A DNA stretch of 64,000 nucleotides from Candidatus Hydrogenedentota bacterium (GCA_034669905.1 JAXMOL010000001.1:224001-288000); one strand, 5' to 3'. Positions 15,901-52,403 are shown, counted from the stretch's first letter. Numbers and translations: made by a program. The notes: a model not told the origin generated them from the sequence alone.

Positions 15901-16312
15901 CCCATTCCTGCTTATAGCGGAAGACCGACTCAATGCAGGTGCGGTTGAACTTCTCCACGCCGAATTCTTCGATGGCTTCTTTACCGCCATCGATGATACC
16001 CAGCTCTTTGCAGACCTCGATTTCCACGGGCAGTCCGTGGGTATCCCAGCCGGCTTTGCGCTCGCAGAAATTGCCCGACATAGTCTTGTAACGGGGGAAG
16101 ATGTCTTTGATGGTGCGCGTCAGGCAGTGGCCCGGGTGGGGCATCCCGTTGGCCGTGGGAGGCCCTTCGTAGAACACGAAACGGGGCGCATCTTTCCGCT
16201 GTTCCAGACTTTTTTTATAGGTCTGGTGTTCTTTCCAGAACGCGATGGTCTCCTTTTCCGCCTCGGCAAAGTTAAAGGGGGACGGGACCGGTTCAAAGGC
16301 ATCGTTAGACAT
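12926..16312 (-). CDS. ileS: Isoleucine--tRNA ligase, type 2 (eukaryote-like)
   Basis: FYEGPPTANGMPHPGH, GWDTHGLPVE, WTTTPWTL, DWALSRERYWGTPLP, DQTRGWFY, KLSKR, LSNWYVRRSR. The long C-terminus (VRQPL, EG..REVVRALQDIRK) is type-2-like. Confidence 0.97.
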   Translation of the reverse strand: MSNDAFEPVPSPFNFAEAEKETIAFWKEHQTYKKSLEQRKDAPRFVFYEGPPTANGMPHPGHCLTRTIKDIFPRYKTMSGNFCERKAGWDTHGLPVEIEVCKELGIIDGGKEAIEEFGVEKFNRTCIESVFRYKQEWEQLTDRIGFWVDLDEAYVTFHQSYVESVWWALKQLFDRGLLYQGHKVVWWWAQGGTALSAGEVGEGYRDVDDPAVTIKLSLTEDGKQALNLEGEDAGLLIWTTTPWTLSSNCAACVGPETDYAVVKHATESGHEMLILAQALVSKYFGEEAEIVQTLKGSDLLGVRYEPLFNYGTPAAMENPDAVSEKHWMVIAGDFVDLETGTGIVHMAPAFGEDDYRVCKESGIGFLCYVKPDGTFDERVTDVDPYDQSPIAGQFCKAADKGILRVLKERGHLFKHEQYKHSYPFCPRAENDPLIQYARKSWFIKTSQFKDDFVANNKEITWQPQHIRDGRFGNFLENNVDWALSRERYWGTPLPVWICDKTGHMECISSYDELLAKPGLEGTEVWEQAKAETPELSEHLKVHKPYIDAVTFQSPKDPEGRMRRVTEVIDVWFDAGSMPFAQWGYPHVEGSAEKFNERFPADFISEAIDQTRGWFYALLAISTVVHGKEKGPWPHPFKNCICLGHILGEDGLKLSKRLKNYSEPGLLFEKFSADALRWSFIAKNPPTNSSRLSERIVEESQRELLMRWYNVYSFFVIYANLDGFDPSSAPQAVLKELFADPAAAPAGGTGGDAVYRPVAERAELDQWILNELDRVIVDARGALDTYETYPAAREVSGFVDSLSNWYVRRSRARFWASGWSEDKADAYWTLYECLIKLARLAAPFTPFFAEVTWRNLAKPVAGAADSVHLATYPVADGATIDHGLLDQMALTREAVTLGLSARRVENIKVRQPLGLCELVVANADQRAALEKHLDLIQEELNIKEVAFTDSPEEYVSYEVRPNFKVLGPRFGKNVQQVRKALAGADGAALAAQVQDGGITIEVNGKPEVLTADEVDVRLTPKEGFAAAQGKQLVVVIATEITDELRKEGLVREVVRALQDIRKEQNLAYDARIAVTYATDDASLNEAIDGFREYIAQEVLANSLVSGAADGDAKVVTVEGSELRLLVAVG

Positions 16313-16828
16313 GGAGCAGGCTTCCTTCGCTAGGGGCGACGGGTTGTTGTGTTTATACCGGGAGCAATACGCACTTTCCGCCCCGAAAACAGGTTCCGGC
16401 ACCACAGAAAGGGATTAAACGGCCGAAAATGGCGTACCAAGCCCAATATGATCGCTTTTCAGGGCCAGATCATGCAACTTTTGGACGAATTTGGGGAATT
16501 GGGCGGTGTGAAGCGGGGCGATAGCGTGGCACGGTCGGGTTACTGCTATTCGTCACGGCACCATGTGGCACCGGTCACAGGGCAGGCCTTTCAATATCAT
16601 GAGCAGTCAACCAAGAAATAAAACGACAAGCCTTCGTGCCACGCGTTCCGGTATATCGCAACGTGTGTAGGGCGCAAGGCTGGGCGGTGCATGGTAGCGA
16701 TCTGAACCCTCTGTATCTCAACACGAGACCATCACGAGAGTGGAAGAGCGCGGATTGCCGCGACGAAGGCGGGAGGTGCGTGGCGTAAGTTGTGGCAATC
16801 TAATGGTGTTAGGACAATCACACGTTTT

Positions 16829-16844
16829 TGGCACGGTGCTGGCT
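16829..16844 (+). promoter_or_regulatory. sigma54 (-24/-12) promoter, copy 1
   Basis: TGGCACGGTGCTGGCT against the consensus TGGCACG-N4-TTGC(A/T): one mismatch, exact GG-N10-GC spacing, conserved in copy 2. Confidence 0.8.
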
Positions 16845-16940
16845 TCACACTCCCATACGCCGTGTGGCGTACGAACAATTGAACGTAAACGTCGATGAAT
16901 CCATCCGCGATTTGCAGGGAAAAGCCAGGAGGAATTTACT

Positions 16941-17075
16941 ATGAACACTATCGAACTCAACGAACTGAACCATGAAGTGACTGTCGAAGAAGCCAACAAC
17001 GTTGTCGGCGGCTACAAACTCAAGAACGTCGTGGTTTCCAGTTACAAGCTCAAAAACGTCGTTGTATCCAGTTAA
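16941..17075 (+). CDS. 44-aa double-glycine-leader peptide precursor MNTIELNELNHEVTVEEANNVVGG-YKLKNVVVSS-YKLKNVVVSS (not in the ORF track)
   Basis: AGGAGG RBS 8 nt upstream of the ATG; EVTVEEANNVVGG leader; core decapeptide repeated with only synonymous differences; paralog at 17604. Confidence 0.85.
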   Translation: MNTIELNELNHEVTVEEANNVVGGYKLKNVVVSSYKLKNVVVSS

Positions 17076-17154
17076 GGTGCCTGCGGCCTGTTCGGTGGCC
17101 CGCGCCACCTGATAGTAGTCCGAGACGGCCCAATACGGATACGAGATTAACGAC

Positions 17155-17208
17155 CACAAAAACGGCTGGTGCCCCGCACATCGTGGGCGCACCGCCGTTT
17201 TTTTTTGT
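17155..17208 (+). terminator. Intrinsic terminator of peptide cassette 1
   Basis: aaaaacggc-tggtgcccc-gcacatcgt-gggcgcacc-gccgttttttttt. Confidence 0.85.
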
Positions 17209-17491
17209 ATGGGTGGCCCGCGAATCGACAAATCGGCATTGTGCGCCTCGAATCCCGATTGGACCAAGCACCAGCCCAAAGGATGTCCCCAAGGGTCGTG
17301 CCGCACGAACCGGTATCTCGGTATCATTCGCCCCGTGCAAGGATGGGCGTTGCATAGTATCGAACTGAGGCCACCGTGTCTGAACACGAGACCATTGTAA
17401 GAATACGATACCCCGGCCTGGCCCGTCGGAGACGGGAAGTTCGCGGCGTAAGCCGCTGAATTATATGGGTGTTATGACAATCATACGTTTT

Positions 17492-17507
17492 TGGCACGGC
17501 GCTGGCG
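17492..17507 (+). promoter_or_regulatory. sigma54 (-24/-12) promoter, copy 2
   Basis: TGGCACGGCGCTGGCG with GG-N10-GC spacing, at the same distance from the ATG as in copy 1. Confidence 0.75.
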
Positions 17508-17603
17508 CTACATTCCTATACGCCGTGGGGCGTGCGAGCAATTGAACGTAAACGTCGATGAATCCATCCGCGATTTGCAGGGAAGAACCAGGAGGAATTT
17601 ACT

Positions 17604-17774
17604 ATGAACACTATCAAAATCAAAGAACTGAACCATGAAGTGACCGTTGAAGAAGCCAACAACGTCGTCGGTGGCTACAAATACAAACTCACCAACGTCG
17701 TAGTTTCCAGTTACGATACCTCCGGTCAAGCCGACGCTACTCGCCGCAACCCATCGCTCAAAACGAGTCGTTGA
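17604..17774 (+). CDS. 56-aa double-glycine-leader peptide precursor MNTIKIKELNHEVTVEEANNVVGG-YKYKLTNVVVSSYDTSGQADATRRNPSLKTSR (not in the ORF track)
   Basis: Same RBS and UTR as copy 1. Leader residues 8-24 are identical to copy 1 and differ at 4 nucleotides, all synonymous. Confidence 0.85.
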   Translation: MNTIKIKELNHEVTVEEANNVVGGYKYKLTNVVVSSYDTSGQADATRRNPSLKTSR

Positions 17775-17806
17775 CACCGTTCAGGAGCGTAACGGGGTTA
17801 CGGATG

Positions 17807-17856
17807 ACAAGAACGGCAGGTGCCTGCACAATGTGCATGCGCCGCCGTCTTTTTGT
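17807..17856 (+). terminator. Intrinsic terminator of peptide cassette 2
   Basis: aagaacggc-aggtgcctgcaca-a-tgtgcatgcgcc-gccgtcttttt, homologous to the terminator of copy 1. Confidence 0.8.
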
Positions 17857-18025
17857 TCGGAAGAACAGACCGACGTCCGGCAACTTTGGTGGGTCTTGAT
17901 TCCTCTTGGAACTAGATCTGGGGGACTCTTTTGCCGATGGCCATTCGTATTTCAGTATCTAATTCGCAAGTTAAACCACCCCGAGATTCCAGCCGCAACC
18001 AGATAACCCCCACTCGGTGACGCCC

Positions 18026-19978
18026 TCAGGGCACCACGTGGTAGAGGTTATAGGGCTGACTTTTCAGCACGGGCTCCAACTGCAGCCTCATCTCACTCGG
18101 GGCCAGGATATAGTCAAACCCATAGGCCTCGGCGAGGACGTGCCACTCCTCTTTCGTCCGACTGGGCCAGCTGGCAAGGGGTTCCTCCGTCATATCCCCA
18201 TCCACAGGAAAGCCGTAGACATCGGCGTGCATCTTCTTGAGGCTCGGGGCCAGATAACGCAGGTAGGTCATGTGGTGAGCGGCCTGGTAGTCCGCGAAAA
18301 TCGGATGGCGGGTTTTGGCGAGCCAGGCCACGTCCCAATAGGGCGGTACAAGCATGGCATCCGACTCGCCCCGTTCGGCGAGATAATCTACCACCTCCTG
18401 CTGCAAGGGGTGGACGGGCAGCTGTTCCCGATGGGCGAGTTGGCCCACGAGGAGTTGGGCTCCCAGGGTCAGTAAGAGGATTCCCTGGTAGGCACCTACC
18501 GGCCCGGCAAGCTCGCCCAACTTCTCGAAGCGAATAAGCACCGCTGCCACGACCAATCCCGCAACCAGAGCGGCCAGCGCAAAGGGCGATAGTCCCGCGA
18601 GGAGAAAAGCGCCGCACACGGCAAAAAGCAGCGGGAGGAAGAGCGAGCGCCCGTGCACCATGCGTGCATAACCCAGGGCGGCCAAAGCACCGCCACACAG
18701 GAGCCACAGGGCCGTGTCGGGATTGTTGAAGTAGCGGGTCGCCAAGCCTTCGGGGAGTATCACTTGCCAAAGAGGACCGAGGGACACCCACAACAAGATC
18801 AGGCACACAAAGATGCGGGAAGCAAAGGGGGGCCAATCGTTGGTGCCTGGCGTCCGCGCCAGCAATCCCAGGGCCAGGGGCACCAACAGAATGGCCAGGT
18901 GATTGGTCAGGCGGTAGGGCATCCAACCCAACAGCAAGAAGGGTATCTCCCCGCCGACCACCTGATGCACCAGCCAGATGAGTCCCACAACGGTGGCGAG
19001 AATGCCCGCATAGAGCGTGACCCAGCCTCGGTCCCGTTCTCCCATGGCCTGTCCCCGCTCCAGGGCGAGGCTGCCGCCGGCCATCAACAAGACCAGCGCC
19101 ACCCCCACTCCACTTTTCCAGAAGGGATTGAGCCGGGCGAAACCGCGATGGAGATCATAGCGCTCCGTGTAGGCCGCCCAGATGGCGTGGGTATCACCCG
19201 TGGCCGCGTAGGCCCCTTCGGTGGGCAAGGGCACGTGAAGACGCGACTGGATGGCGTAGAAAATCACGCAGGGCACCAATCCCAAAGCGAAATAGCCCAA
19301 GGCCTGCACGACCCGCCTATGGTCCCGCTGATAGCAATAGATAAGCCACTGCACCCCGGCCACGGCCCCAATAACGGGTAGTTGTCCGATATGGATGGCC
19401 ACCATGAGCCCCAGGAGAAGCCAGACGGTCCGCCAGCAATCATAGAGCAACAGGGCAAAGACCAGTAGCGCGTAGCCCGTGCCGATTTGTCCGATGGCAT
19501 ACATGTGGGGCCAGGATTCGATAGGGTAGTAACTCTGCAGGCCCTGATGAATGCCCAACAAAACCAATACGACAGCGATATGGCCATACCACGTCTTTCC
19601 GGAAAAACGGGTGCCCAGCAAGAAGACCGGTACGGTGCAGAAAACAAGCTGGAGCACGTTGCGGTAGCCATTCACGAGAAGGGGCGAATCCACGAAGTGC
19701 AGCACCAGCGCCGACAGGTAGCTCTGCCCACTGAAGACATTCCGGCAATATTGATAGCAGGGATGGCCCTCGGGATAGGGCACGAGGCCCGTGATCAGGA
19801 GGGCGTGCTCATAGGTCTCTTCCCAGCGAACGCCGCGTAGTGCGACGGCGAAAAGTGAAAAAGCGACCCAGCCGAGGCTGCCATACCACAATGATCGAAA
19901 GTCGATGGACTGCTTTTCTTGTTGACGTGCCGAGGAAATAGCGATGGCTCCCGTAGTGCGTTGGAAGGAAGGCCCCAT
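18026..19978 (-). CDS. Large polytopic membrane protein, possibly GT-C-like; start uncertain
   Basis: Many hydrophobic segments, N-terminal VRWEETYE acidic loop, soluble C-terminal domain (LAEAYGFDYIL). Confidence 0.6.
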   Translation of the reverse strand: MGPSFQRTTGAIAISSARQQEKQSIDFRSLWYGSLGWVAFSLFAVALRGVRWEETYEHALLITGLVPYPEGHPCYQYCRNVFSGQSYLSALVLHFVDSPLLVNGYRNVLQLVFCTVPVFLLGTRFSGKTWYGHIAVVLVLLGIHQGLQSYYPIESWPHMYAIGQIGTGYALLVFALLLYDCWRTVWLLLGLMVAIHIGQLPVIGAVAGVQWLIYCYQRDHRRVVQALGYFALGLVPCVIFYAIQSRLHVPLPTEGAYAATGDTHAIWAAYTERYDLHRGFARLNPFWKSGVGVALVLLMAGGSLALERGQAMGERDRGWVTLYAGILATVVGLIWLVHQVVGGEIPFLLLGWMPYRLTNHLAILLVPLALGLLARTPGTNDWPPFASRIFVCLILLWVSLGPLWQVILPEGLATRYFNNPDTALWLLCGGALAALGYARMVHGRSLFLPLLFAVCGAFLLAGLSPFALAALVAGLVVAAVLIRFEKLGELAGPVGAYQGILLLTLGAQLLVGQLAHREQLPVHPLQQEVVDYLAERGESDAMLVPPYWDVAWLAKTRHPIFADYQAAHHMTYLRYLAPSLKKMHADVYGFPVDGDMTEEPLASWPSRTKEEWHVLAEAYGFDYILAPSEMRLQLEPVLKSQPYNLYHVVP

Positions 19979-20060
19979 TATAGACGGGAGCACGTGCAAA
20001 TTATAGGCAGAAAAATGGGCCTTTGCAGCGCATCGGGCAGGAGCGCGGGGTAGTTGCAAT

Positions 20061-20091
20061 CTCGTTCCCAAGCGCTGCCTGGGAATGCAGC
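20061..20091. repeat. CTCGTTCCCA..TGGGAATGCAG palindromic REP-like element
   Basis: ctcgttcccaagcgctgcctgggaatgcag; related copies at 12728-12757 (reverse) and 61985-62014. Confidence 0.75.
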
Positions 20092-41719: not shown

Positions 41720-43600
41720 TCAGAATCGGGAGGGGTCGACGAGGAACACCGCCCCGTTGCCATCGGTGGCAATGGGCGCGAGCCAGTCGGCTGTACGGAG
41801 TTCCGCCAATACCCCCGCATCCACGGGGCAGGTGGCAGGGCAGTAGACGTATTCGACGCACCACTCGGCGACGAATGCCTGTCGTGATTCCATATCCCCT
41901 TCTGGACTGAAGAACCGGTTGACCGCCTCTTGCAATGGGCCCAGGCGCTGATCGCCGAGGTTCATGGCCCCCGGTCCACCTAAGATCTGATAGTCCCCCT
42001 GATGCACGAGGATTTCGCCAAAGGCGATGGGGGACCAGGAAGGGACCGCCACGGTGCCGGGCGGCAGGTGGCGTATAAGCCGTGTATCCGCCTCATCCAT
42101 GTATTCATAGTGGAGCCAGGCAAAGGGGCCTTTTCCCGGTTCATGGCCCAGGGGCCCCTGAAACCAGAGGGCCGCGACGGTGTTGGACAGCACCCCTCCA
42201 CCCAGCAACAACACCAGCCACACCCGCCGCCAAGGTCCCTTCATCTGCTGCAATCCCACGGCCGTCATCAAGGCGAGCGGCACCCCCATCAATACCATGA
42301 GCCGTTGGGGACTGAAGCGCAGAAACCACCCCTGCCCCAGGGCGAGTAGGGACACCACCAGCACTCCCACCAGCCAAAGCAGTATCCAGCGATGGGGACT
42401 CTCCGCCCCACCGTCGTTGGCTTTACCCGTAACCCGGTGAAGCAGCACGTAGAGGGGCAGCAGGGTCACGAGGGCGCCGTCACTCGCCACTATGGCGGCA
42501 TTCATGTCTCCCCCGGCCCGGAAATTTCCAAACCACAGCTGATGCCCCAGATAGAGGAGGGTGTAACCGAGCAGGTAGGCGCCCAGGGCGGTAAGGCAAC
42601 GCAGCAACGGGGTGGCCATGCCTGCGCGCACCCGACCCACGGCCACGGCCACGGCGGGCCAGTGAAACACGGTGCCAAAGAGCAGGGGCAAGAGGAGCAC
42701 ACAGTTGGGGGTGATATCGGCCACATTGACCCCATAGTTTGGATGCTGCCAGAGCAGGGCGATAAAGATCGCCGACCCCACGACGACAGGCAGGGCCGTT
42801 GCCACCATGAGTTTGAGTCGGAAGGCCCATTCATTCTTGCTGCCTGCCGCAAGATAGAGGGCACCCAAGGCCCAAAACAGGGGGCCAAGCCGCAGATTCA
42901 GCACGGCGGCAACAAAGAGCAGAAACCCCGTGAAAAATAAATGGCCGGGACAGCGGCACCGGTCGGTTTCCACGAGGGCGGTGAGGGCCGCGAAGCCGAG
43001 GGCCAGTGGAAGGGTGTAGTAAAAGCGGGGCATCAGCAGTGCGGGCGCGAGGTGCTGCCCTTCGATGAGTTCGTATTGGGCGAAGCGGTAAAACCAGACT
43101 TCAAAGGCGGGGTCATGGAGTGCCCCCTGCGCCCAGGCCCCCAGGAACACCAGGCCCCCGACACCACCGGCCAGGGCATAGAGGTAAAAGGCCAGCGTCG
43201 CCTCCCGGGGGGCGACGCGCTGGAAGAAGCGGTAGACATTCCATAAAAGCAGAAAGCCGCCCAGTCCATTCGCGAGTCCGAGGAACAAGAAGGGCGCCAC
43301 GCCGAGCATGCGCCCGAATTCACCCAGCAGGCCGTAGAGTAAAAAAATGGGTACGGAAAAATAGCCGAAGTCACGCGGCCCCGCTTCGGCCTTGCACGTG
43401 GCGAAGGGCGACGCGAAACCGGTGGCGAAACTCTCCATGGCGATGAGGTGGTGGCTGCTGTCACCCGTGTGCACCCCCGTGGGCACCGCACCAGATGGTG
43501 TCGCCTGTAGAATCCAAAGGTGGGTCAGGGGTTCCAAGAGGGCCAACAGCACCATGACGCCATAGGGCAGCAGGGCTTTCCACGAGAACCGCTCAGACAT
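41720..43600 (-). CDS. Large polytopic membrane protein (putative GT-C glycosyltransferase), paralog A
   Basis: Many TM segments; shares EPLTH.W, G.H.GD, RFA.YELIEG, PR.YYTLPL, FQGPLGH.PG and WCV.Y.YCPAT.PV with the neighbouring gene. Confidence 0.7.
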   Translation of the reverse strand: MSERFSWKALLPYGVMVLLALLEPLTHLWILQATPSGAVPTGVHTGDSSHHLIAMESFATGFASPFATCKAEAGPRDFGYFSVPIFLLYGLLGEFGRMLGVAPFLFLGLANGLGGFLLLWNVYRFFQRVAPREATLAFYLYALAGGVGGLVFLGAWAQGALHDPAFEVWFYRFAQYELIEGQHLAPALLMPRFYYTLPLALGFAALTALVETDRCRCPGHLFFTGFLLFVAAVLNLRLGPLFWALGALYLAAGSKNEWAFRLKLMVATALPVVVGSAIFIALLWQHPNYGVNVADITPNCVLLLPLLFGTVFHWPAVAVAVGRVRAGMATPLLRCLTALGAYLLGYTLLYLGHQLWFGNFRAGGDMNAAIVASDGALVTLLPLYVLLHRVTGKANDGGAESPHRWILLWLVGVLVVSLLALGQGWFLRFSPQRLMVLMGVPLALMTAVGLQQMKGPWRRVWLVLLLGGGVLSNTVAALWFQGPLGHEPGKGPFAWLHYEYMDEADTRLIRHLPPGTVAVPSWSPIAFGEILVHQGDYQILGGPGAMNLGDQRLGPLQEAVNRFFSPEGDMESRQAFVAEWCVEYVYCPATCPVDAGVLAELRTADWLAPIATDGNGAVFLVDPSRF

Positions 43601-45488
43601 GCCCAAGAGGCCCTTCGGGAAGGTTCACCCGATAGATGACAGCGTCGCCTTCCCAATCCACGGGGATAAGCCAGTGCGACCGATTAAATTGGTCGATCAC
43701 CTCGGGGGCGACCGGACGGGTGGCGGGGCAATAGATGTAGTCTACACACCAGCCGGCCACGAAGGCCCGGCGCACCACGTCGGTGGTGGCGGGATCGAAG
43801 AACTCCTGCACCTTACGGGCCATGGTCAGCATATTCACATCGCTGAATTCGAGACTGGGCTGTCCAAAGACCGTACGCGCATGGGGACGGCGCACGACGA
43901 TCACGTCGCCCAACAAGGGCGGTTCCGAGGCGGGGGCAAGTACCGTGCCGCCCTCGATACGGTCGATAAGGGCGATGTCGTCGGGCAGAACCAGTTCGCT
44001 GTGGACCCAGCCAAAGGGCGAGGTGCCCGGAGTATGGCCCAGGGGGCCTTGAAAGCAGAGGGTAGACACGCCCAGGGAACAGAGGCCACACACGACAATC
44101 CAGCCCGTATAGGCGGTGGTCAGTCTGGGCAGGCGCGCGCGAAGCATGTGCAGGCCTTCGGCGGCGAGGAGGGCCATAGGCGCGCCCAACACGATGAGGC
44201 AGCGCTCGGGCATAAGCCGCAGGAACCAACCATTCCCAAATGCCGAAATCGCCAGGCAAGCCAGCCCCAAGAACCAGAGGGCAACCCAGCTTTCCGTGGC
44301 GGCCAGGGGGTTGCTGTCTGCCTTGCGAAAGAGCACGATGCTCCCCGGGATGATGCCCAACAGGGCCCAGTCACTGATAGCGATGGCGGCCGCCGTTTCA
44401 CCACCGGAAAGAAAATTCCCATACCAAACCTGATGGGCCACGTAGAGCGCAGCGAAGGTGAAACCATAGCCCGCCCCCCAACCGAGGAGGAGCCGTCCGC
44501 TCCAGGGTAGTTTCCCGAGATGCTTCCAGAGCGCTACGAGCACCGGGGGCCAGAGCCAGAGGGTGGCGGTGATGAGGGAGCCGAACCACGCGCTGCGGCG
44601 GAGCAACTCGGAAAAGTTTTCGGCACCGGTCACGTTGAGTCCAAAGAGGGCCTGCATCACCAGGGTAGCCACCACGGTCGGTACGAGGTAGTAGATCACG
44701 TAGCGAAGTTTCTGCTTCCATGGCAGGCCCGGCTGGACGAGCATGAAGCAGGCGGCCACGCCCCAGAGGAGCAGACCGACCCGGGCATTCAGATAGGTCG
44801 TGAGCAGTTGGAGCAGGATAGCCCCCATGGACGGCATGGAAAGTCCCCGACTCATGGAGCCAATATAGGCGACCAGGGCCGCGAAGCCAATGCCGAGGGG
44901 CAGGGTGTAATAGAGCCGCGGCAGGACCAGCACGGGGGACAGAAAGGGGCCTTCGATCAGTTCATAGCGGGCGAAGCGATGAAACCAGGTTTCAAAATCG
45001 GCGGTATCACTTACCCCCCACGCCCAACTGGCGAGCCAGACCATGCCCCCCAGACCGCCACTGAGGGTGAAGAGCAGGAAGGCCAGGGACGCACGCTCTG
45101 GGGCAACGACGCGAAAGAAGCGCCACACCATGGCGAGAAAAAAGGCGGCAGCGAATCCATTTGCAATCCCCAGGGTCAGAAAGGGGGCCAGTCCCACGAG
45201 CCGCCCCACCCAACCAATGGCGGCGTAGAGCCAATGGTGCGGCAGGGCAAAGAGCGCGGGGTCCCGTCGTGCATCTTCCGTATCGCAGGCGAGATAGGGC
45301 GAGTAGAATCCGTTCCCGAAGACTTCCATATCGGTGGTAAAAAAAGGTGTGTCACCAATGTGAAAGCCCGAGTGGGCCACATCCTCCCCCAGGCCGTGGG
45401 CCAGCCACACATGGGTCAGGGGCTCGATAAGGGCGAATGCGACGATAATACCGACAATCCACCAGGGAGTCTTCGCACTATAGGCCAC
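43593..45488 (-). CDS. Large polytopic membrane protein (putative GT-C glycosyltransferase), paralog B
   Basis: GTG start at 45488 after GAGGAG; same motifs as paralog A; overlaps both neighbours. Confidence 0.7.
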   Translation of the reverse strand: MAYSAKTPWWIVGIIVAFALIEPLTHVWLAHGLGEDVAHSGFHIGDTPFFTTDMEVFGNGFYSPYLACDTEDARRDPALFALPHHWLYAAIGWVGRLVGLAPFLTLGIANGFAAAFFLAMVWRFFRVVAPERASLAFLLFTLSGGLGGMVWLASWAWGVSDTADFETWFHRFARYELIEGPFLSPVLVLPRLYYTLPLGIGFAALVAYIGSMSRGLSMPSMGAILLQLLTTYLNARVGLLLWGVAACFMLVQPGLPWKQKLRYVIYYLVPTVVATLVMQALFGLNVTGAENFSELLRRSAWFGSLITATLWLWPPVLVALWKHLGKLPWSGRLLLGWGAGYGFTFAALYVAHQVWYGNFLSGGETAAAIAISDWALLGIIPGSIVLFRKADSNPLAATESWVALWFLGLACLAISAFGNGWFLRLMPERCLIVLGAPMALLAAEGLHMLRARLPRLTTAYTGWIVVCGLCSLGVSTLCFQGPLGHTPGTSPFGWVHSELVLPDDIALIDRIEGGTVLAPASEPPLLGDVIVVRRPHARTVFGQPSLEFSDVNMLTMARKVQEFFDPATTDVVRRAFVAGWCVDYIYCPATRPVAPEVIDQFNRSHWLIPVDWEGDAVIYRVNLPEGPLGHV

Positions 45489-46470
45489 GAATATCGTCTC
45501 CTCGTTCCAGCAGGGCCTGCATGGCATCGTCCCCAAGCGTTCGCCGGGCACCCAAGGCACGTCGGGCCCGAATAGCGGCGGGCATACGGCGCATCAGGCC
45601 GCCCCACGCAGACAGGGTTACCACCAGGGCCGCCGCAGCACCCCATTCATTCCGGGCCACGGAAAAAAGCCGTGCCCACTGGTGGCACCGTTCTTTCAGC
45701 AGGGCCCGTCGGTTTCGCCACAGCAGTCTCCAGGTGAAATTCTTCCACACCAGCAGGGCGTGATTCTGAAAGCACTGTCGGGTACGCCACCAGATTCGCC
45801 CCTGAATACTGGCACTGCCCACGTGGAAGGCCACGGCGTCGGGAACGAGCGCGGCTTCATGGCCCGCCCACCGGGCCCGAAAACACCAGTCGGCATCCTC
45901 AAAATAAGCCACAAAGGTGTTGTCCAGCAACCCGATCGCTTCCAACATATCGCGACGAAAGAGGCCATAACCGCCGGAAATTCCGAAGGGCGGCGCGAAC
46001 TCGGTCACCGCCTCGCGGGAACATTTGTAGGCCAGACTGACGGGACGTCCATTCACCCCGATGCGGTCCCCCGCGCTGTAGATCAGTTGGGGGTCTTCGG
46101 TCCAGAGCACCAGCGGACAAATCATGCCATACCTTCCCTCACGGGCACATGCCAGGAGTTTCTCAATACACTGCGCTTCCAGTGTAACATCGTTATTGAG
46201 CAGGAACACCCAGGGGGCCCGGGCCATCACCAACCCCTGGTTGGCCGTGGGCGCGAACCCCCGATTCACCGGGGACACCACGCACTTCACGTGGGGATAG
46301 GCTTCCGCCAGCCGGGCCGGCGTATCGTCCGTTGAGCCATCGTCCACCACGATGATCTCCATGTCCTGATGGGTCTGCCTGGCGAGGGACTGGAGGCAGG
46401 CTTCGAGCAGCTCCCAGCCATTCCACGTGGGGATCACGACCGAAAGTTCGGGTACGGTAGGGGCGCTCAT
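45478..46470 (-). CDS. GT2 family glycosyltransferase (WbbL/rhamnosyltransferase-like)
   Basis: VVIPTWN, VVDDGSTD, NRGFA, LLNND and YFEDADWC motifs. Confidence 0.92.
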   Translation of the reverse strand: MSAPTVPELSVVIPTWNGWELLEACLQSLARQTHQDMEIIVVDDGSTDDTPARLAEAYPHVKCVVSPVNRGFAPTANQGLVMARAPWVFLLNNDVTLEAQCIEKLLACAREGRYGMICPLVLWTEDPQLIYSAGDRIGVNGRPVSLAYKCSREAVTEFAPPFGISGGYGLFRRDMLEAIGLLDNTFVAYFEDADWCFRARWAGHEAALVPDAVAFHVGSASIQGRIWWRTRQCFQNHALLVWKNFTWRLLWRNRRALLKERCHQWARLFSVARNEWGAAAALVVTLSAWGGLMRRMPAAIRARRALGARRTLGDDAMQALLERGDDIRGL

Positions 46471-47234
46471 CGGCCACGTTCCCGGGGGCTAATCCAGAGG
46501 AGGGCCCGGTAGCAGGTACCGAAGTGGAGACGGGACAGCACGGGCACCGACCAGCGCAACAAGACCTGGGTGATCGCATTGCCGCGTCCCGGCCAATTGC
46601 ACATGAGGATGCGCCACATGCCTTCCCAGGCCCAGAGACTGGCATTGCCACTCCGGGTAATCTGGTAGTCCTCCCCCGCCTTGGCCTGAAGGTCGCGGGC
46701 CACTTCGGTGCCATCGGGAAGTCCCTGATCGACGTGTTCCTCGAGCCAGCGAATGGTGCCCCCGCACAGGTCGTGGTAGGCCGTGCGAATCCGGGTCTCG
46801 GCTTCGCTGGACGCCGCACCTGACGGAAAGCCTATGGCCCCCACGCCGTCGGGTTTCAGCACCCGCAGAATTTCCCCATTGGCCGTCTCCCGGTGGGGCC
46901 GGGCGATGTGTTCGTAGGTATCCATACACACCACGGCATCGAAGGTACCCTCCGCAAAGGGCAGGGCCCCGATGTCGGCCACGACCGGCAACACCTTTTG
47001 GGTGTCGCGGGCCGCCTTCAGGTGCTCGGCGGCAATATCGATGGCAATGACCTGGGCCCCCGTAAATCGGGCCAGGCCATTCTCATTGGCCCCCACTTCG
47101 AGGAGGCACTGCGCCTTCCAGGGGCGATTGGGGAATCGGCGCAGCACCGGCAGGTAGCGCAAGGCCCAGTCCGGATAACCCCGGCCATCTTTCTCGGCGT
47201 AGTCACGCAGTCGGCGGCTCAGTTCACGCAGCAT
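46467..47234 (-). CDS. Class I SAM-dependent methyltransferase in the glycan operon
   Basis: LLEVGA; LPFAEGTFDAV; EHI; RVLKPDG. Confidence 0.85.
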   Translation of the reverse strand: MLRELSRRLRDYAEKDGRGYPDWALRYLPVLRRFPNRPWKAQCLLEVGANENGLARFTGAQVIAIDIAAEHLKAARDTQKVLPVVADIGALPFAEGTFDAVVCMDTYEHIARPHRETANGEILRVLKPDGVGAIGFPSGAASSEAETRIRTAYHDLCGGTIRWLEEHVDQGLPDGTEVARDLQAKAGEDYQITRSGNASLWAWEGMWRILMCNWPGRGNAITQVLLRWSVPVLSRLHFGTCYRALLWISPRERGR

Positions 47235-48843
47235 CGGAAACCCTCGCCGTCAGAAAACGAAATCCGGGAACGCGATCGAGCCGGAGCGTATCCCGGAGGA
47301 ACTCCACGTCGTAGCGGTCTATAAAGGGGGTCCATCGTAGGCAGGCGATATACAGCATGCCGAATAGTACGGCGCTGACAGCGGCAATTGCCAGATTCCC
47401 CACCCGATCCAGGTAGCCCTGGCAAGCCCACGTAATCGTGGCGCACAGCAGGAAGCCCGGGAGGCTGGCGACCAGGGGCCAGATACAGGCCGAACGGAGC
47501 AAGGCCCCGGGCGAAACGGCCACATCGTGTTTCAGGGCATTGAAAAACCAGAGGGTGGAAATCGAAAGGGCCAGGGTGGTGGCCAGGGGGATGCCGTAAA
47601 AACCGATGGCCTTAAAGAGTACGATGGTGAGGAGCACATTGCCGAACATGGAAATGAGTCCCGCGCGCATGGGCAGGCCGGCGTTCCCTTTTCCGAGGGC
47701 CACACTCACCCCCGGTCCGGGCAGCAGATTCATGGCATAACCCAGCAAGATAATCTGCGCCACCCCGCCCGCCACGCCAAGGGTGGATTTCACCTGATAG
47801 AGCGACAACACCAGATCGGTCACCGCGATGGCGAAGGCCGTGAGGGGTATGGTCACGGCCGCCACGTATTTGGTGGCCCGCACATAAAGTTGGGCGAGCC
47901 GGGCGTGGTCGTCCCGGGAATCCAGGTGGGATACGGCCGGCACCAGGGCGCTGACCAGTAAGGCCGGGATCTGCCGCACCTTGGCGGCAATGTCTTCGCC
48001 GATGCGATAGAGGCCCACCAACTCCAATTGCCCCCCGGTCGCCAGGGCCACAATCATGCGGTCGGTCTGGAAGTTGATGAGGTTGGATAACTTGGCCACC
48101 TGGGAGCGCCATCCAAAGGCCAGCAGCGTGCGAAAGAGGGGAACCCGCAGGTAGCCCGGCCGACAGTGAAGCCCGGGAAAAATACGGTAGGCCACCACCA
48201 TGTTGGCAGCCGCGAAGGCCACCAGTACGACGGCGTTGGTATAGAGCAGGCCCCGCACGCCGTGGCCCTGTTCGAGAAACCCAACGGTGGCCAGGACCTT
48301 GATGACAGAAGCCCCGAAGCTGAGGACGTTGGTAATGCCCATGCGTTGAAGACCCGATTGCAGGGCCGCAAAGGGCGCGACGCTGTTGGTGAGCACGAAC
48401 AGAATGAGGGCCCCCCGAAAAAGAAATCGGGCTTCGTCCCACCGGGTGTTATCCCCCAGGGCCCACGAGCGCCCCGGGTGGAGGGTGTTCATGAGGGCCA
48501 GGGTACCATCCATCAGCCAATCGATGAGGGGCCACCCCAGGGCCACCATGACCACCCCGAGGGCCGTGTAGAAAAACACGCCCGTGCTCACCACGGCACT
48601 CACCTCATCCCGCTGTTCATTCGCGGCGAAGGAGGCGATGTATTTGGTGAAGGCGCTGTTCACGCCGAAGTCGAAGAGGGCCGCGTAGCCGGTGAACACC
48701 GCGACCAGGGACCAGAGGCCAAAGCCTTCCATGCCCACGCGGTCGATGATGTAGACTGTCAGGCCAATGCTGACCAGGGCTTCCCAGAGACGGCCCAGTC
48801 CGTTGTAGACCGTGTTATGGGCGATGGTCTTACGCAGCGACAT
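47224..48843 (-). CDS. Wzx-like oligosaccharide flippase (MOP superfamily)
   Basis: IAHNTVYN..G.EGFGLWSL..FDFGV..AFTKYIA pattern; TDRMIV; many TM segments. Confidence 0.88.
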   Translation of the reverse strand: MSLRKTIAHNTVYNGLGRLWEALVSIGLTVYIIDRVGMEGFGLWSLVAVFTGYAALFDFGVNSAFTKYIASFAANEQRDEVSAVVSTGVFFYTALGVVMVALGWPLIDWLMDGTLALMNTLHPGRSWALGDNTRWDEARFLFRGALILFVLTNSVAPFAALQSGLQRMGITNVLSFGASVIKVLATVGFLEQGHGVRGLLYTNAVVLVAFAAANMVVAYRIFPGLHCRPGYLRVPLFRTLLAFGWRSQVAKLSNLINFQTDRMIVALATGGQLELVGLYRIGEDIAAKVRQIPALLVSALVPAVSHLDSRDDHARLAQLYVRATKYVAAVTIPLTAFAIAVTDLVLSLYQVKSTLGVAGGVAQIILLGYAMNLLPGPGVSVALGKGNAGLPMRAGLISMFGNVLLTIVLFKAIGFYGIPLATTLALSISTLWFFNALKHDVAVSPGALLRSACIWPLVASLPGFLLCATITWACQGYLDRVGNLAIAAVSAVLFGMLYIACLRWTPFIDRYDVEFLRDTLRLDRVPGFRFLTARVSDAA

Positions 48844-48849
48844 GGCGTG

Positions 48850-48997
48850 ACCCACCCCTCGCCCCTCCCGGGAGGGGAATTAAGCGAGAAATCGTACGGA
48901 CGCACGGCGGGAATAGCAAGACTCCCGTCGTGCTTGTTCGATGGGCCGACACAGACCCACCCCGTGCCCATCCCGAGAGGAGCCGGGGGTGGGTTTC
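48850..48997. repeat. CCCCTCC..GGAGGGG REP-like elements between the flippase and GT39-like genes
   Basis: acccacccctcgcccctcccgggaggggaat and acccaccccgtgcccatcccgagaggagccgggggtgggt; same family as 5961-6042. Confidence 0.7.
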
Positions 48998-49001
48998 CCG
49001 C

Positions 49002-50810
49002 TTAGCGCACCGCATAGAAGGCCACCTCCTCGACGCCACTCCCACCGCGACGGGGCAAATGGAGGGGACGATCAATCGCCTCGAAAAAGGCTGGGGACTC
49101 CCGCCACTGTTGCAACATGGTCGCCACCGCACCCGCGAGGGCGCCGGAAGAATTCACGTAGTCGGTGGGAATCATGATGTACCTAATGTCCTTCGCCTTC
49201 AGCCAGGCCACCTGGGCCTCCAGGGGTTCCGTCGCGATACGTTGGAGACTCCAATGATTCTGATAGGTCGGCCCGTCAATATAGTAACTCCGCTGATCGA
49301 GGACCAGGAGCTTGCCGCCGTCGTTCAGGTGTTCATTGGCATACCGAAATGCCCCATAGCGCTCCACCCGTTCGGTGAGATATTCCGTTTTCGTTTGGCG
49401 GCCCAGCACCACGCCCACCTTAAAGTGTACGGCGGCGGCGTGGAGACCGAGTCCGTAGGCAAAAGAAAAACACAGGATGGCCACGACGAGTCCACGGCCA
49501 CGGGCCATGCGCTCAGGCACCAGGGCGGCCACCACCATCATGGGTGTGAAGAAAGGCAGGATATAACGGGCCAGCCGCTGGAAAAAGAAGAAGGCCAGTC
49601 CCCCTGCAGTGCTGTAGGCCCCCAGGCTCCAGGCACGGGCACCGCCCAGTATCAAACCAGGCACGCCGAGGACCAGCACCATGCCTCCGGGAGATTTGCT
49701 CCAGCCGTCGTAGTCCTGGGGGCGCATGATGATGTCCCAGGGAAATCGCAGGAGTGCCCACAGGGAGAGGCCCCGGGCACGATCGATGGATTCATGGGCA
49801 CCCGGCGTGGAGATGGCGATATGGTCGATGGGGCCTTCGGGAAACACGGAAAGGAGGAAGGGAAACACGGGATTCCCGGTGAGCCACCAACTGCGTCCAA
49901 ACCACGGGAGGGCCGCCACGAAAGCGAGCGCCGCGAAAAGGCCCACCGCCCTCAGCCGATGGCCTGCGGGGGCATAAAGGGCCACCGCCACCAGCAAGAT
50001 GGGCACGATTAAGAACCCCGTGTGGCGAATTCCGCAGGCACTCCCGGCAAGAACGGCAGCGAGCACCAGGCCGGCCCATTGTCCCGTGCGGTGCGCGATA
50101 AACAGGGCGGTGATTGTCGCCGTACTGAAGGCTACAAAAGGCAAGTCAATGCCCACGCCACTGGCCTGGTCCATATAGATGGGGGCCGTCGCCAGCAAGG
50201 CCGCCGCGACGAGACCGGTCTGGCGGGTACCCACCCGACGCCCCAGGCTGTAAATCGCCAGGCAGGCCAGGAGACCGAAGCTCCAACTCAACAGGGAAAC
50301 GGGCAGTTCGTGGCCCCCGCTGCCGCTGTAGAAGGCGACGGCAAAGAGACTGTGGAGCAGGTGGGGATAAGCGGAGTAGACGTTTCCCGTATCGAGCGCG
50401 ATGTGACCGAGTCGGGTATATTCTGCCGGGAGAGCCAGGTGGGCGACGCAGGCATCCCAACTGGTGACGGGTGCGAGGGCACCGAGGAGACTCAGGGCGG
50501 CCGCCATGCCGATGGCCAGGCAACTCGCCTTTTCCAGGCGCGAGAACGGAGAAGCGGCCCAATCTGAAAAGGGGGCCGTGGGCACGGCGTATCGGTAGTG
50601 GCTGAGGAGTGAAAGCACAGCGACGCCGGCCAGCAGGGCCTGTGCCGCGACGAGCGACAGACTCCCCACCAGCAGGGCGAACAGGGCCACCGGGATGAGA
50701 CCCGTCAGGATACGCAGGCCGGTAGCTTCCAGGGCATCGACGAAGGGAAGGGGCCGCAGACAGCGGGAGCCCACGCCCCACGCGGCCGTCATGATGAGTA
50801 TAAATGACAT
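49002..50810 (-). CDS. GT39/ArnT-like (GT-C) membrane glycosyltransferase
   Basis: PVTSWDACVAHLALP early-loop Asp motif; YP.L; PWFGRSWWLTGNPVFPF; many TM segments. Confidence 0.75.
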   Translation of the reverse strand: MSFILIMTAAWGVGSRCLRPLPFVDALEATGLRILTGLIPVALFALLVGSLSLVAAQALLAGVAVLSLLSHYRYAVPTAPFSDWAASPFSRLEKASCLAIGMAAALSLLGALAPVTSWDACVAHLALPAEYTRLGHIALDTGNVYSAYPHLLHSLFAVAFYSGSGGHELPVSLLSWSFGLLACLAIYSLGRRVGTRQTGLVAAALLATAPIYMDQASGVGIDLPFVAFSTATITALFIAHRTGQWAGLVLAAVLAGSACGIRHTGFLIVPILLVAVALYAPAGHRLRAVGLFAALAFVAALPWFGRSWWLTGNPVFPFLLSVFPEGPIDHIAISTPGAHESIDRARGLSLWALLRFPWDIIMRPQDYDGWSKSPGGMVLVLGVPGLILGGARAWSLGAYSTAGGLAFFFFQRLARYILPFFTPMMVVAALVPERMARGRGLVVAILCFSFAYGLGLHAAAVHFKVGVVLGRQTKTEYLTERVERYGAFRYANEHLNDGGKLLVLDQRSYYIDGPTYQNHWSLQRIATEPLEAQVAWLKAKDIRYIMIPTDYVNSSGALAGAVATMLQQWRESPAFFEAIDRPLHLPRRGGSGVEEVAFYAVR

Positions 50811-51005
50811 TCTATACACTCCGCGGAGAATGTAGTAGGGACGATAGCACTTGGCCCCCGTCAAAATCACCTGTGGCCCCCATTTCGGGGCAGAAAAGCG
50901 GCTTCGGACCGCCGGGTCAATCCGGGTGGTTGTAGGCCGTGACGGTAAATGCCGTATAATTCCGTTTCCAACGTACGTGAGTATAGAGCGCAGTGAACCC
51001 TCGCC

Positions 51006-52403
51006 ATGAAAAGGAGGCAACGATTGATTGCTGAATTGCACCCGCGACGACGCCTGTCCCACGGGCTGGTATTGTCGACCGTCATACTATTGGGGGGCTA
51101 CCTCAGTGGTTGCGCCACCACGGGAGTTGGCGCACAAAGTGCCGTCATCCACGCCAAAAACGTGGTGGCTCCCGCCCTCGTCCACATCCGCCCGGTAAAA
51201 GAAGTCTATGCCCAGGGTAAACGCAAAGAAGTGCTCGTAGTCGGCAGTGGATTTATTATCTCTCCCGATGGCTACGTGGTAACCAATGAACACGTGGCGG
51301 GCGAGAGCAACTACGTCCGCTGTGTATTGGGCACCAAAGACGAAGTAGAGGCCGAGGTTATCGGGGTAGACCCCTACACCGATTTGGCCGTGCTCAAACT
51401 CGACGTGGGCTATCCCCTCCCCTATGTGCGCTTTGGGAATTCCGACAAGATCCAAGCGGGCCAGACGGTGATTGCCATGGGTAGCCCCCACGGTCTTTCC
51501 CGCTCGGTTTCCAAGGGTATTGTGAGTGTAACGGGGCGCCACCTGGCCGATCAGGCCGCCAAAGCCCCCTTCACCAACTGGGTGCAGACCGATGCCGCCA
51601 TCAACCCCGGCAACAGCGGTGGCCCCCTCGTTAACCTCAGTGGCAATGTGATTGGTGTTAACTCCATGGTCTTGCGCGGAGCCGAGAACGTGGGCTTTGC
51701 CATTCCCAGCAACCTGGCGAAACAGGTCGCTGAAGCGATCATCGCTAACGGCCGGGTACAACGCAGCTGGGTAGGCCTGGACCTGCAAGAGATGCTGGCC
51801 CGAACCGATGACCCCAATATTAAGGGTGTGGTGATTGCGGGGATTGACCCCCTCTCCCCCGCCTTTGAAGCCGGTATTCGCCCCGGCGACCTGTTGCTCG
51901 CCATTAACGGGGAGCCCGCCAACGCCCGCTTTGAAGAAGAACTCCCCCTGGTTCGGAGTGCCATCGCAGCATTGCCAGTCGGTGAAGCCATCCCGTTTCT
52001 TTTCAAGCGGGGTGACGAAGAACGCGAAGTCGTGCTCACCACCGAAGAGCGTGGTGGCCTGAAAGGGGAGCAGGGCGAGTATAAGGAATGGGGCTTTACC
52101 GCCTCCGAATTGACAGCGACCATTGTGCGCCGTGCCCGCCTCGATTCCAACAAGGGCGTCCTGGTCTCAGGCACCCAGGTCGGTGGCATCGCCAACAATG
52201 GAGGGCTCGCCCAGGGTGACATCATCCTGGCGGTCGACGGCATTGAGGTGATAAACCTGGCCCAGTTCAAGGAGCTCTATGATGAGCGACTGGAAAGCGG
52301 CCAGAAGCGGGTCTTGCTCCTGGTACGGAACCGGGCCCTGACCCGTTATGTCTTGATTGTGCAGGAAGACGACCGTTCGGAAGGAGCCGACGATGAGAAG
52401 TAG
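51006..52403 (+). CDS. HtrA/DegP-like serine protease with two PDZ domains, probable lipoprotein
   Basis: GSGFII, TNEHV (His), TDLAVL (Asp), QTDAAINPGNSGGPL (Ser); LSGC lipobox-like segment. Confidence 0.92.
   Translation: MKRRQRLIAELHPRRRLSHGLVLSTVILLGGYLSGCATTGVGAQSAVIHAKNVVAPALVHIRPVKEVYAQGKRKEVLVVGSGFIISPDGYVVTNEHVAGESNYVRCVLGTKDEVEAEVIGVDPYTDLAVLKLDVGYPLPYVRFGNSDKIQAGQTVIAMGSPHGLSRSVSKGIVSVTGRHLADQAAKAPFTNWVQTDAAINPGNSGGPLVNLSGNVIGVNSMVLRGAENVGFAIPSNLAKQVAEAIIANGRVQRSWVGLDLQEMLARTDDPNIKGVVIAGIDPLSPAFEAGIRPGDLLLAINGEPANARFEEELPLVRSAIAALPVGEAIPFLFKRGDEEREVVLTTEERGGLKGEQGEYKEWGFTASELTATIVRRARLDSNKGVLVSGTQVGGIANNGGLAQGDIILAVDGIEVINLAQFKELYDERLESGQKRVLLLVRNRALTRYVLIVQEDDRSEGADDEK

Follow-up and report, generated by a model that had tools for sequence, protein, structure and literature searches.

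We analysed a stretch of 64,000 nucleotides (the window) from a Candidatus Hydrogenedentota bacterium, whose genome (G000; 7.44 Mb, 59% GC, 95.7% complete) contains it as G000:C1:224001-288000; positions are counted from the first letter of the window. The gap between ileS, which is divergent, and the next gene, which is convergent and ends at 18026, contains two homologous cassettes, each encoding a short peptide with a double-glycine (GG) leader. An earlier note on this DNA had described two homologous cassettes of about 660 bp, and our analysis bears this out: the ATGs are 663 bp apart, the open reading frames (ORFs) run from 16941 to 17075 (44 aa) and from 17604 to 17774 (56 aa), as the note had placed them, and each cassette has its own promoter box, untranslated region (UTR), AGGAGG ribosome-binding site (RBS), leader and terminator hairpin. 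Identity between the cassettes is 81.5% across 378 bp, and both share 101 of the 112 positions that lead from the promoter to the ATG.

All these features lie on the plus strand. In cassette 1, a sigma54-type -24/-12 box (GG-N10-GC, 16829-16843), assigned on its spacing and on its enrichment across the family described below, is followed by a conserved 5′ UTR (16844-16940) with two predicted hairpins and the RBS at 16927-16932. The 24-aa GG leader of peptide 1 (16941-17012) scores 43.2 bits on a family leader profile built including this peptide, and its 20-aa core (17013-17075) comprises two tandem 10-aa modules (17013-17042 and 17043-17072) that resemble a strand of the protein Hcp. Beyond the stop codon lie a former C-terminal tail, decayed and now non-coding (17076-17120), which is visible in the alignment to a syntenic orthologue in genome G004, and an intrinsic terminator-like hairpin with a T run (17160-17207, -28.1 kcal/mol) that is conserved in G004. 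Cassette 2 has the same order, with a GG-N10-GC box at 17492-17506, a conserved 5′ UTR at 17507-17603 (RBS 17590-17595), a 24-aa GG leader at 17604-17675 (42.5 bits on the profile, which was built including peptide 2 as well), a 32-aa core of an Hcp strand plus a tail at 17676-17774, and a terminator-like hairpin with a T run at 17808-17855 (-25.4 kcal/mol). Both leaders end in EVTVEEANNVVGG (VVGG). The two boxes have the correct spacing and stand 112 nt 5′ of each ATG, with TGGC and not TTGC as the -12 element; a lone box of this kind is not above chance, the window containing 15 one-mismatch matches against a shuffle mean of 9.9. An Rfam scan of 16300-18100 matched no family, the conserved UTR included. 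The terminator hairpins were not listed by a simple terminator scan and came from hairpin folding together with the T run.

The recent history of the pair can be followed in two other genomes. G004 holds a single syntenic copy after ileS, and G007 has none at the corresponding downstream site. Compared with G004, copy 1 carries a 30-nt internal duplication, whose two modules differ by four synonymous and no non-synonymous changes, and a stop codon in place of a Tyr conserved in the orthologues, beyond which the decayed tail lies; copy 2 reads through the ancestral stop for about nine codons. Alignment of both copies with G004 therefore defines the conserved unit as a Y-K-L-x-N-V-V-V-S-S(-Y) strand. 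The new stop, the read-through tail and the empty site in G007 could be taken to mean that the window copies are decaying remnants without present function. We regard this as most improbable, given that both copies have kept an intact promoter, UTR, RBS, leader and terminator, that the duplicated module has changed at synonymous positions only, and that a syntenic orthologue persists in G004. The equivalent site of G007 (L118, C376:9430-11214) is occupied by tandem repeats of about 300 bp with a TGGCAC box and no peptide genes, and an ORF among them is, we assume, transposase-like; about 130 bp of this repeat are also present in the window at 16518-16645, immediately 5′ of cassette 1.

The earlier note had taken the two genes for an orphan pair, and this did not survive a genome-wide search. 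A leader-only profile run on the 140,438 Met-started ORFs of G000 recovered ten family genes on six contigs (C1, C3, C6, C28, C38 and C47), of which the window holds two; three extra rows were internal starts within the same ten genes. These copies are dispersed and have strong RBSs. Four near-identical members lie at the facing ends of contigs C47 (L020) and C38 (L019), so that an array probably broke the assembly there and may hold more copies. The peptides are present in 10 of the 15 genomes of the taxonomic family (75 rows, 74 distinct peptides) and in 10 of the 126 phylum genomes that are at least 80% complete; relative to the set of 15, G012 falls out at this threshold and G074 is gained. 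A database search gave 124 homologues, and among the 120 matches listed three had Nif11-type leaders. Outside the Hydrogenedentota, leader-bearing relatives were recovered in records of Desulfobacteraceae, Acidobacteriota, Parasphingorhabdus and Parasphingopyxis; of 12 loci considered, leader-bearing ORFs from outside the phylum came from L102, L103, L106 and L108 only, while L104, L105 and L107 were seen by tblastn alone and L109 was dropped, being inside a long ORF. The GG is invariant in 19 of 19 rows of the leader alignment (A1), and ahead of it the leaders are hydrophobic at about -4 and -7/-12, with acidic positions in between.

To what extent the peptides are under selection could not be read from the window pair. 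The four differences between the leaders over residues 8-24 are all synonymous, as the earlier note had counted, and the selection it drew from them is weakly supported by this pair taken alone, in which residues 5-7 add three non-synonymous changes (four synonymous and three non-synonymous over the whole leader, a weak signal). Across the family, on the other hand, pN/pS was 0.12 for leaders and 0.17 for cores in ten disjoint cross-genome pairs, values that are biased downwards in pN by the choice of pairs with at least 75% protein identity. This substitution pattern is that of coding sequence under purifying selection. Synonymous variation is found within every module, and the possibility that modules are conserved as DNA, for instance as recombination sites, was rejected because synonymous codons vary inside them. 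The promoters recur too: 32 of 73 family genes, mostly those that come first in an array, are preceded by a sigma54 box at a distance of 60-200 nt, as against 43 of 3393 background sites with an RBS and an ATG. G000 has the predicted GG-N10-GC promoter, rpoN (contig C23) and an activator.

Searches beyond the family returned little. Core 2 had no tblastn match among plasmids and a related longer core had one, to an Hcp, at E 2; sequence searches of the PDB with peptide 2 and with the core alignment gave nothing useful, and ESM Atlas offered for peptide 2 only hypothetical, ComC and lantibiotic-leader leads, all below 0.9. For 16600-17900 no RNA holder was listed, which carries no information about expression. 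No description of the family was found in the literature searched, whose scope left out subscription journals and supplements. The peptide system is real, conserved and, in that literature, undescribed.

The earlier note had seen no peptidase-containing ABC transporter (PCAT), HlyD or maturase gene in the window and had proposed processing in trans. Indeed, a Pfam scan of 47 ORFs in the window found none, and G000 encodes a C39 exporter, an HlyD protein, a sigma54 activator and rpoN elsewhere; the genome searches that the note had suggested thus yielded further copies, the transporter and the activator, with the PCAT beside two family peptides on contig C6. This exporter (1039 aa) combines two cyclic nucleotide (cNMP)-binding domains with a C39 peptidase and an ABC domain, and its catalytic Cys, His and Asp are in place. 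HlyD and the activator are encoded on C6 too, together with a PpiC-related, TIGR04500-like protein (48.8 bits, below the cut-off of 180). An orthologue of the exporter, at 64% identity or more, occurs in 10 of 10 peptide holders among the 15 genomes and in none of the five non-holders, in which the best matches reach 42% identity at most; a C39 domain was also found in five of five further holders examined. Peptides, exporter and the Cys-rich protein described below have one and the same distribution, in 10 of the 15 genomes, which as kin are not independent. Taken together, the leader and this co-occurrence make it very probable that the peptides would be cleaved after GG and exported by the C6 transporter.

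In their GG leader, C39-ABC exporter with catalytic residues, HlyD partner and precursors of less than 100 aa, the peptides resemble other GG peptides exported by PCATs. They differ in that the cores of this family derive from fragments of Hcp, DUF1559 and further proteins, that the genes are dispersed with sigma54 promoters of their own, and that the exporter has two cNMP-binding domains. The combination of a GG leader with a transporter of the PCAT type is also the export logic of class II microcins, according to PMC12219008, which raises the question of whether these are ordinary class II microcin or bacteriocin toxins, with a receptor or membrane target and cores of incidental origin. We find this highly unlikely. 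The best bacteriocin match of the window peptides, L_biotic_typeA (E 0.13), is below cut-off and falls in the leader region, and NCBIfam gave none; the peptides belong to no curated bacteriocin family, nor, by cut-off, to Hcp. Their cores are polar and 20-32 aa long, and in neither cassette did an immunity-type or conserved ORF appear in the stretch of at most about 90 nt between ORF and terminator, where no systematic search was made. A further possibility is that the peptides are signals, pheromones or mimics of fragments set free when cells are attacked or lyse, which a receptor would read and which would feed back on the dedicated sigma54 activator that adjoins the exporter. Pheromones are among the GG peptides exported by PCATs (PMC7018657), and the leaders have weak ComC matches. 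The exporter locus, however, showed no receptor kinase. That a genome should carry ten different cores, some of them chimeras, is moreover atypical of pheromones, and we consider a signalling role quite unlikely.

Next to the C6 activator lies a gene for a 363-aa Cys-rich protein, a paralogue of which precedes the C3 peptide gene by 250 bp. In its predicted model (pLDDT 90), the five best structural matches of residues 277-363 were recognition elements (RREs) of ribosomally synthesized and post-translationally modified peptides (RiPPs): TigE with Z 8.1 (root mean square deviation 3.0, 81 residues aligned), MibB 7.3, PbtF 7.1, MccB 7.1 and TbtB 6.6, although Z of 7-8 is middling and in the range that the structure-comparison tool calls common. 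Foldseek placed TbiB1 first (probability 0.96, E 0.18), and one homologue carries PqqD domains as a fusion. The protein is thus predicted to bear a leader-binding RRE fold. Eight Cys are invariant or nearly so. The N-terminal Cys-rich domain (model pLDDT 74) matched no solved fold, the best Z being 3.4, which does not imply a new fold, and the protein matched no curated RiPP enzyme family. A match to PF03692 (YkgJ/CxxCxxCC Fe-S proteins) was absent from the G000 copy and weak in 14 of 107 homologues (best E 0.0026), with a PF03692-type Atlas lead at 0.82. YcaO was absent from G000, and LanC/LanM, radical SAM and ATP-grasp proteins were absent from the scanned ORFs of the window and C6, the last two not having been searched genome-wide.

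These features invite comparison with RRE-dependent RiPPs (TigE, MibB/NisB, TbtB, lasso B1, MccB), to which the system is similar in having a co-occurring protein with a C-terminal RRE-like predicted fold and a TIGR04500-like PpiC protein, a type that Table 1 of PMC8939145 also lists near graspetide loci. It differs from them in lacking YcaO and in its N-terminal domain without a solved-fold or curated enzyme-family match. The system would work like a PCAT-exported peptide and probably also like an RRE-dependent RiPP. Of the RiPP- or bacteriocin-like character proposed at first, the RiPP part thereby gains a candidate RRE enzyme, by prediction, and bacteriocin activity is supported by nothing tested.

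Whether the cores are modified by such a leader-binding enzyme is, on model and sequence, an even bet. If they are, Lys methylation would be most likely. In Parasphingorhabdus and Parasphingopyxis, a PF10119 gene lies 3′ of the peptides and is the only one of each genome; it is a homologue of the rickettsial lysine methyltransferase PKMT2 (E 2e-22). The Cys-rich protein was not found in these two genomes, and PF10119 had no match in G000. Lysine methylation is suggested as a common step because the PKMT homologue replaces the Cys-rich protein in two genomes and because of a weak family link. This link is to FliB, a 4Fe-4S enzyme, and the rickettsial PKMT1/2: the PKMT homologue adjoins the alphaproteobacterial peptides, and the PF03692 matches of the Cys-rich protein, weak as they are, concern a motif type to which the FliB paper likens its 4Fe-4S lysine methyltransferase (PMC8598068). 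The CX4CX3CC of FliB (PMC8598068) nonetheless differs from the arrangement in the Cys-rich protein, the two being compared by Cys spacing only. Lys is present in 165 of 166 cores, which at a Lys content of 9.6% is weak support for methylation. Telling against the proposed modification, the Cys-rich protein is missing from the distant genomes G042 and G043, and G042 lacks PF10119 too, so that no modifier is universal. At L102:3375-4949, a protein with tetratricopeptide repeats and a glycosyltransferase 41 domain (O-GlcNAc transferase type) adjoins the Desulfobacteraceae peptides and is a further candidate modifier.

Two other GG peptides are encoded on C6. One, of 68 aa (L015:7194-7400), has an RVIRLDDL motif, a sigma54-type box of its own and a core that is not Hcp-like, and it heads the operon of the Cys-rich protein and the activator. 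The other (L015:5446-6764, minus strand) is rich in Arg, has a GG leader and does not belong to the main family; the next gene encodes a protein of 350 aa that we take to carry amidinotransferase (pentein) motifs, a fold that no library confirmed. A homologue of this protein is encoded in the Desulfobacteraceae locus L102. Peptide and protein are possibly a separate arginine-modifying cassette that shares the exporter.

The cores, which the earlier note did not recognise, both copy a strand of Hcp, which forms the tube of type VI secretion systems (T6SS). We used a profile of 51 single-domain Hcp proteins and judged each core against 200 shuffles. Both window cores outscored 200 of 200 shuffles and mapped to positions 98-119 of 161. 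The profile was passed by 130 of the 166 distinct cores of the family, a set biased by the profile used for finding them, as against 2 of 166 length-matched control fragments, and other family cores cover several further Hcp segments. With an Azospirillum Hcp the window cores gave p 0.0002 and 0.0012 (0 and 11 of 20,000 decoy windows scored equal or higher), in a comparison that is partly circular since this Hcp was chosen with a related core. Sibling cores reached E 2e-6 and 1e-5 on Pfam Hcp. The best foreign Hcps gave scores of 46-64 for the window cores, as against 18 and 42 on the Hcp of G000 itself (contig C9). At the level of sequence, then, the window cores are copies of one late Hcp beta-strand. 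They are 10-20 residues of a protein of about 160, are carried on an export leader and lie outside a T6SS locus; we infer that they cannot adopt the Hcp fold alone. The earlier note had named, as an outcome that would undo its proposal, peptides matching fragments of a longer ordinary gene decayed at this place. Fragments they are by origin, but no gene is decaying here, because they have their own leader, promoter and terminator and belong to a family under selection.

Among the Hcp proteins themselves, single ones with signal-like N-termini are common (35 of 37 of length 176-260), and many proteins of 1000-2100 aa (P0242-P0271 and others) string six Hcp domains in tandem, the equivalent of an entire ring in one chain. 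A closer relation of the cores to signal-peptide Hcp than to canonical Hcp was considered and rejected, the former scoring higher in only 37 of 125 cores.

Hcp is not the only source of modules. In motif classes defined after the data were seen, 92 of the 166 distinct cores are Hcp only, 20 join Hcp to a DUF1559 C-terminal motif, 17 have the DUF1559 N-terminal motif and 8 both DUF1559 ends; 7 are Hcp plus gp19-like, 6 DUF1559 plus gp19-like, 4 Hcp plus GWGSS, 2 Hcp plus FG-GAP and 1 FG-GAP, with 9 outside these classes. Chimeras joining motifs of different sources account for 39 of the 166. The assignment of sibling cores to DUF1559 and its H-X9-DG motif is firm (E 2.2e-9; 31.7 bits over a cut-off of 19), whereas for FG-GAP (E 0.032) and gp19 (E 0.18) it is weak and in part our assumption. 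These cores match Gemmataceae DUF1559/H-X9-DG prepilin-like proteins (PF07596, TIGR04294) in their terminal motifs only, often fused to Hcp pieces, and such motifs are absent from both window peptides. One DUF1559 sibling core has 75-97% identity to full-length proteins among the 120 matches listed, of which those named by organism are Gemmataceae or Fimbriiglobus in 9 of 9 cases; LPAVQ is found in 120 of these 120 proteins and LPALAR in none. G000 holds 53 DUF1559 matches of its own, with 46 LPAL-type matches and none to DGSVR. The modules are therefore foreign in type, the LPAVQ proteins being of Gemmataceae type and the DUF1559 genes of G000 using different motifs; copying from the latter was rejected on the same ground. 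At L070, L073 and L065 (G001, G006 and G008) the cores terminate with VFVGGWGSSMYQY, a conserved module that the comparisons made traced to no source protein.

We propose that the window genes, satellite members of the ten-gene family, would be expressed via sigma54, that a leader-guided modification would be carried out by the RRE-bearing Cys-rich enzyme encoded on C6, that the C6 PCAT would cleave and export the products, and that the freed strands would act as decoys, jamming or occupying the type VI tubes and pilin-like fibres of neighbours. As a whole, this chain of expression, modification, export and decoy action falls somewhat short of an even chance in our judgement, and the decoy role of the released strands, which is read from their sequence, we put forward tentatively. 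A wider version, in which the family would be a cross-phylum, shuffled library of the best-conserved motifs from the surface machines of other microbes (type VI tube, Gemmataceae pilin-like proteins, FG-GAP adhesins and phage-type tail tubes), joined to an export leader, modified by a new class of RRE-bearing iron-sulfur lysine methyltransferases and secreted as anti-T6SS and anti-pilus decoys, seems rather unlikely when taken as a whole.

A number of observations count against the decoy proposal. The Pfam Hcp matches of the window are weak, with E 0.021 for the whole of peptide 2 (15.6 bits, short of the full PF05638 domain cut-off of 23.5), 0.11 for core 2 and none for peptide 1. Core 2 scores 42 on the Hcp of G000 and 41 on that of Azospirillum, and the C-termini of both window copies have drifted. 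Hcp tubes assemble in the cytoplasm, so that an exported decoy must enter the rival cell or hit released Hcp. Family modules also connect the domains of P0253, an Hcp protein with six of them, and P0391 and P0392, which have signal-like N-termini, mix Hcp and DUF1559 motifs; both are about 365 aa long, with the Hcp Gly-rich motif, several LLPAVQ, H-X9-DG and NNLKQ motifs. The modules of these three proteins point to a general module vocabulary and not specifically to an attack on type VI tubes.

The same mosaic proteins count in favour of the principal alternative, that the cores are short beta-strand building blocks which assemble together extracellularly as a fibre or matrix, a functional amyloid or coat, the Hcp and pilin pieces having been recruited because they polymerise. 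Modules are tandemly repeated within single cores (twice in window peptide 1, three times in one C6 core, and as three SY(Q/K)LT repeats in one G003 core), the window module alternates hydrophobic with polar residues, the family counts ten dispersed copies with strong RBSs, and some holders lack Hcp. The cores, however, keep residues specific to Hcp and DUF1559, at the 75-97% identity given above, beyond what a generic amyloid would need, and the DUF1559 N-terminal module is, we presume, a pilin-helix segment. We judge this alternative unlikely.

The distribution of Hcp was also compared with that of the peptides. Within the 126 phylum genomes, 9 have both, a single one has peptides without Hcp and 6 have Hcp without peptides (15 with Hcp), an overlap that comes mostly from one genus. 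That 9 of 10 holders have an Hcp of their own speaks against decoys aimed at others and, set beside 15 of 126 for the phylum, favours peptides that tune the type VI system or pilin-like proteins of the producer itself. Furthermore, the Hcp of G000 lies amid recognisable T6SS-type genes, and the genome has the 53 DUF1559 matches mentioned above. Such tuning is nevertheless very unlikely in our view: six genomes have Hcp without peptides and one holder has no Hcp, the modules are nearer to foreign than to own proteins, the overlap is largely that of one genus, and full-length Hcp was found in none of five distant peptide genomes (of unstated completeness, the G043 peptide being known from tblastn alone). 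With such distant holders devoid of full-length Hcp, the system appears not to need a T6SS of its own. The T6SS-type cluster around the Hcp of G000 (G000:C9:39400-59500, L031-L032), whose genes apart from Hcp were recognised by eye only, lies beside a gene for a secreted protein of 3004 aa.

Elsewhere in the window, large membrane proteins without a Pfam match are encoded at 18026-20071, 41720-45560 and 47224-51062, near glycosyltransferase, methyltransferase, flippase and PMT-type genes, which gives the region the look of a surface glycan cluster.

If the released strands are true decoys, they would represent a means of defence or competition against type VI secretion made of the weapon's own parts, and would provide ready-made short peptide inhibitors. 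If they self-assemble, they would form a new extracellular material from borrowed strands. Either way, these would be secreted peptides born by the capture and shuffling of protein fragments, of which the literature searched contained no case, and the system offers an uncharacterised candidate enzyme, RRE-bearing and Cys-rich, together with its probable substrates.

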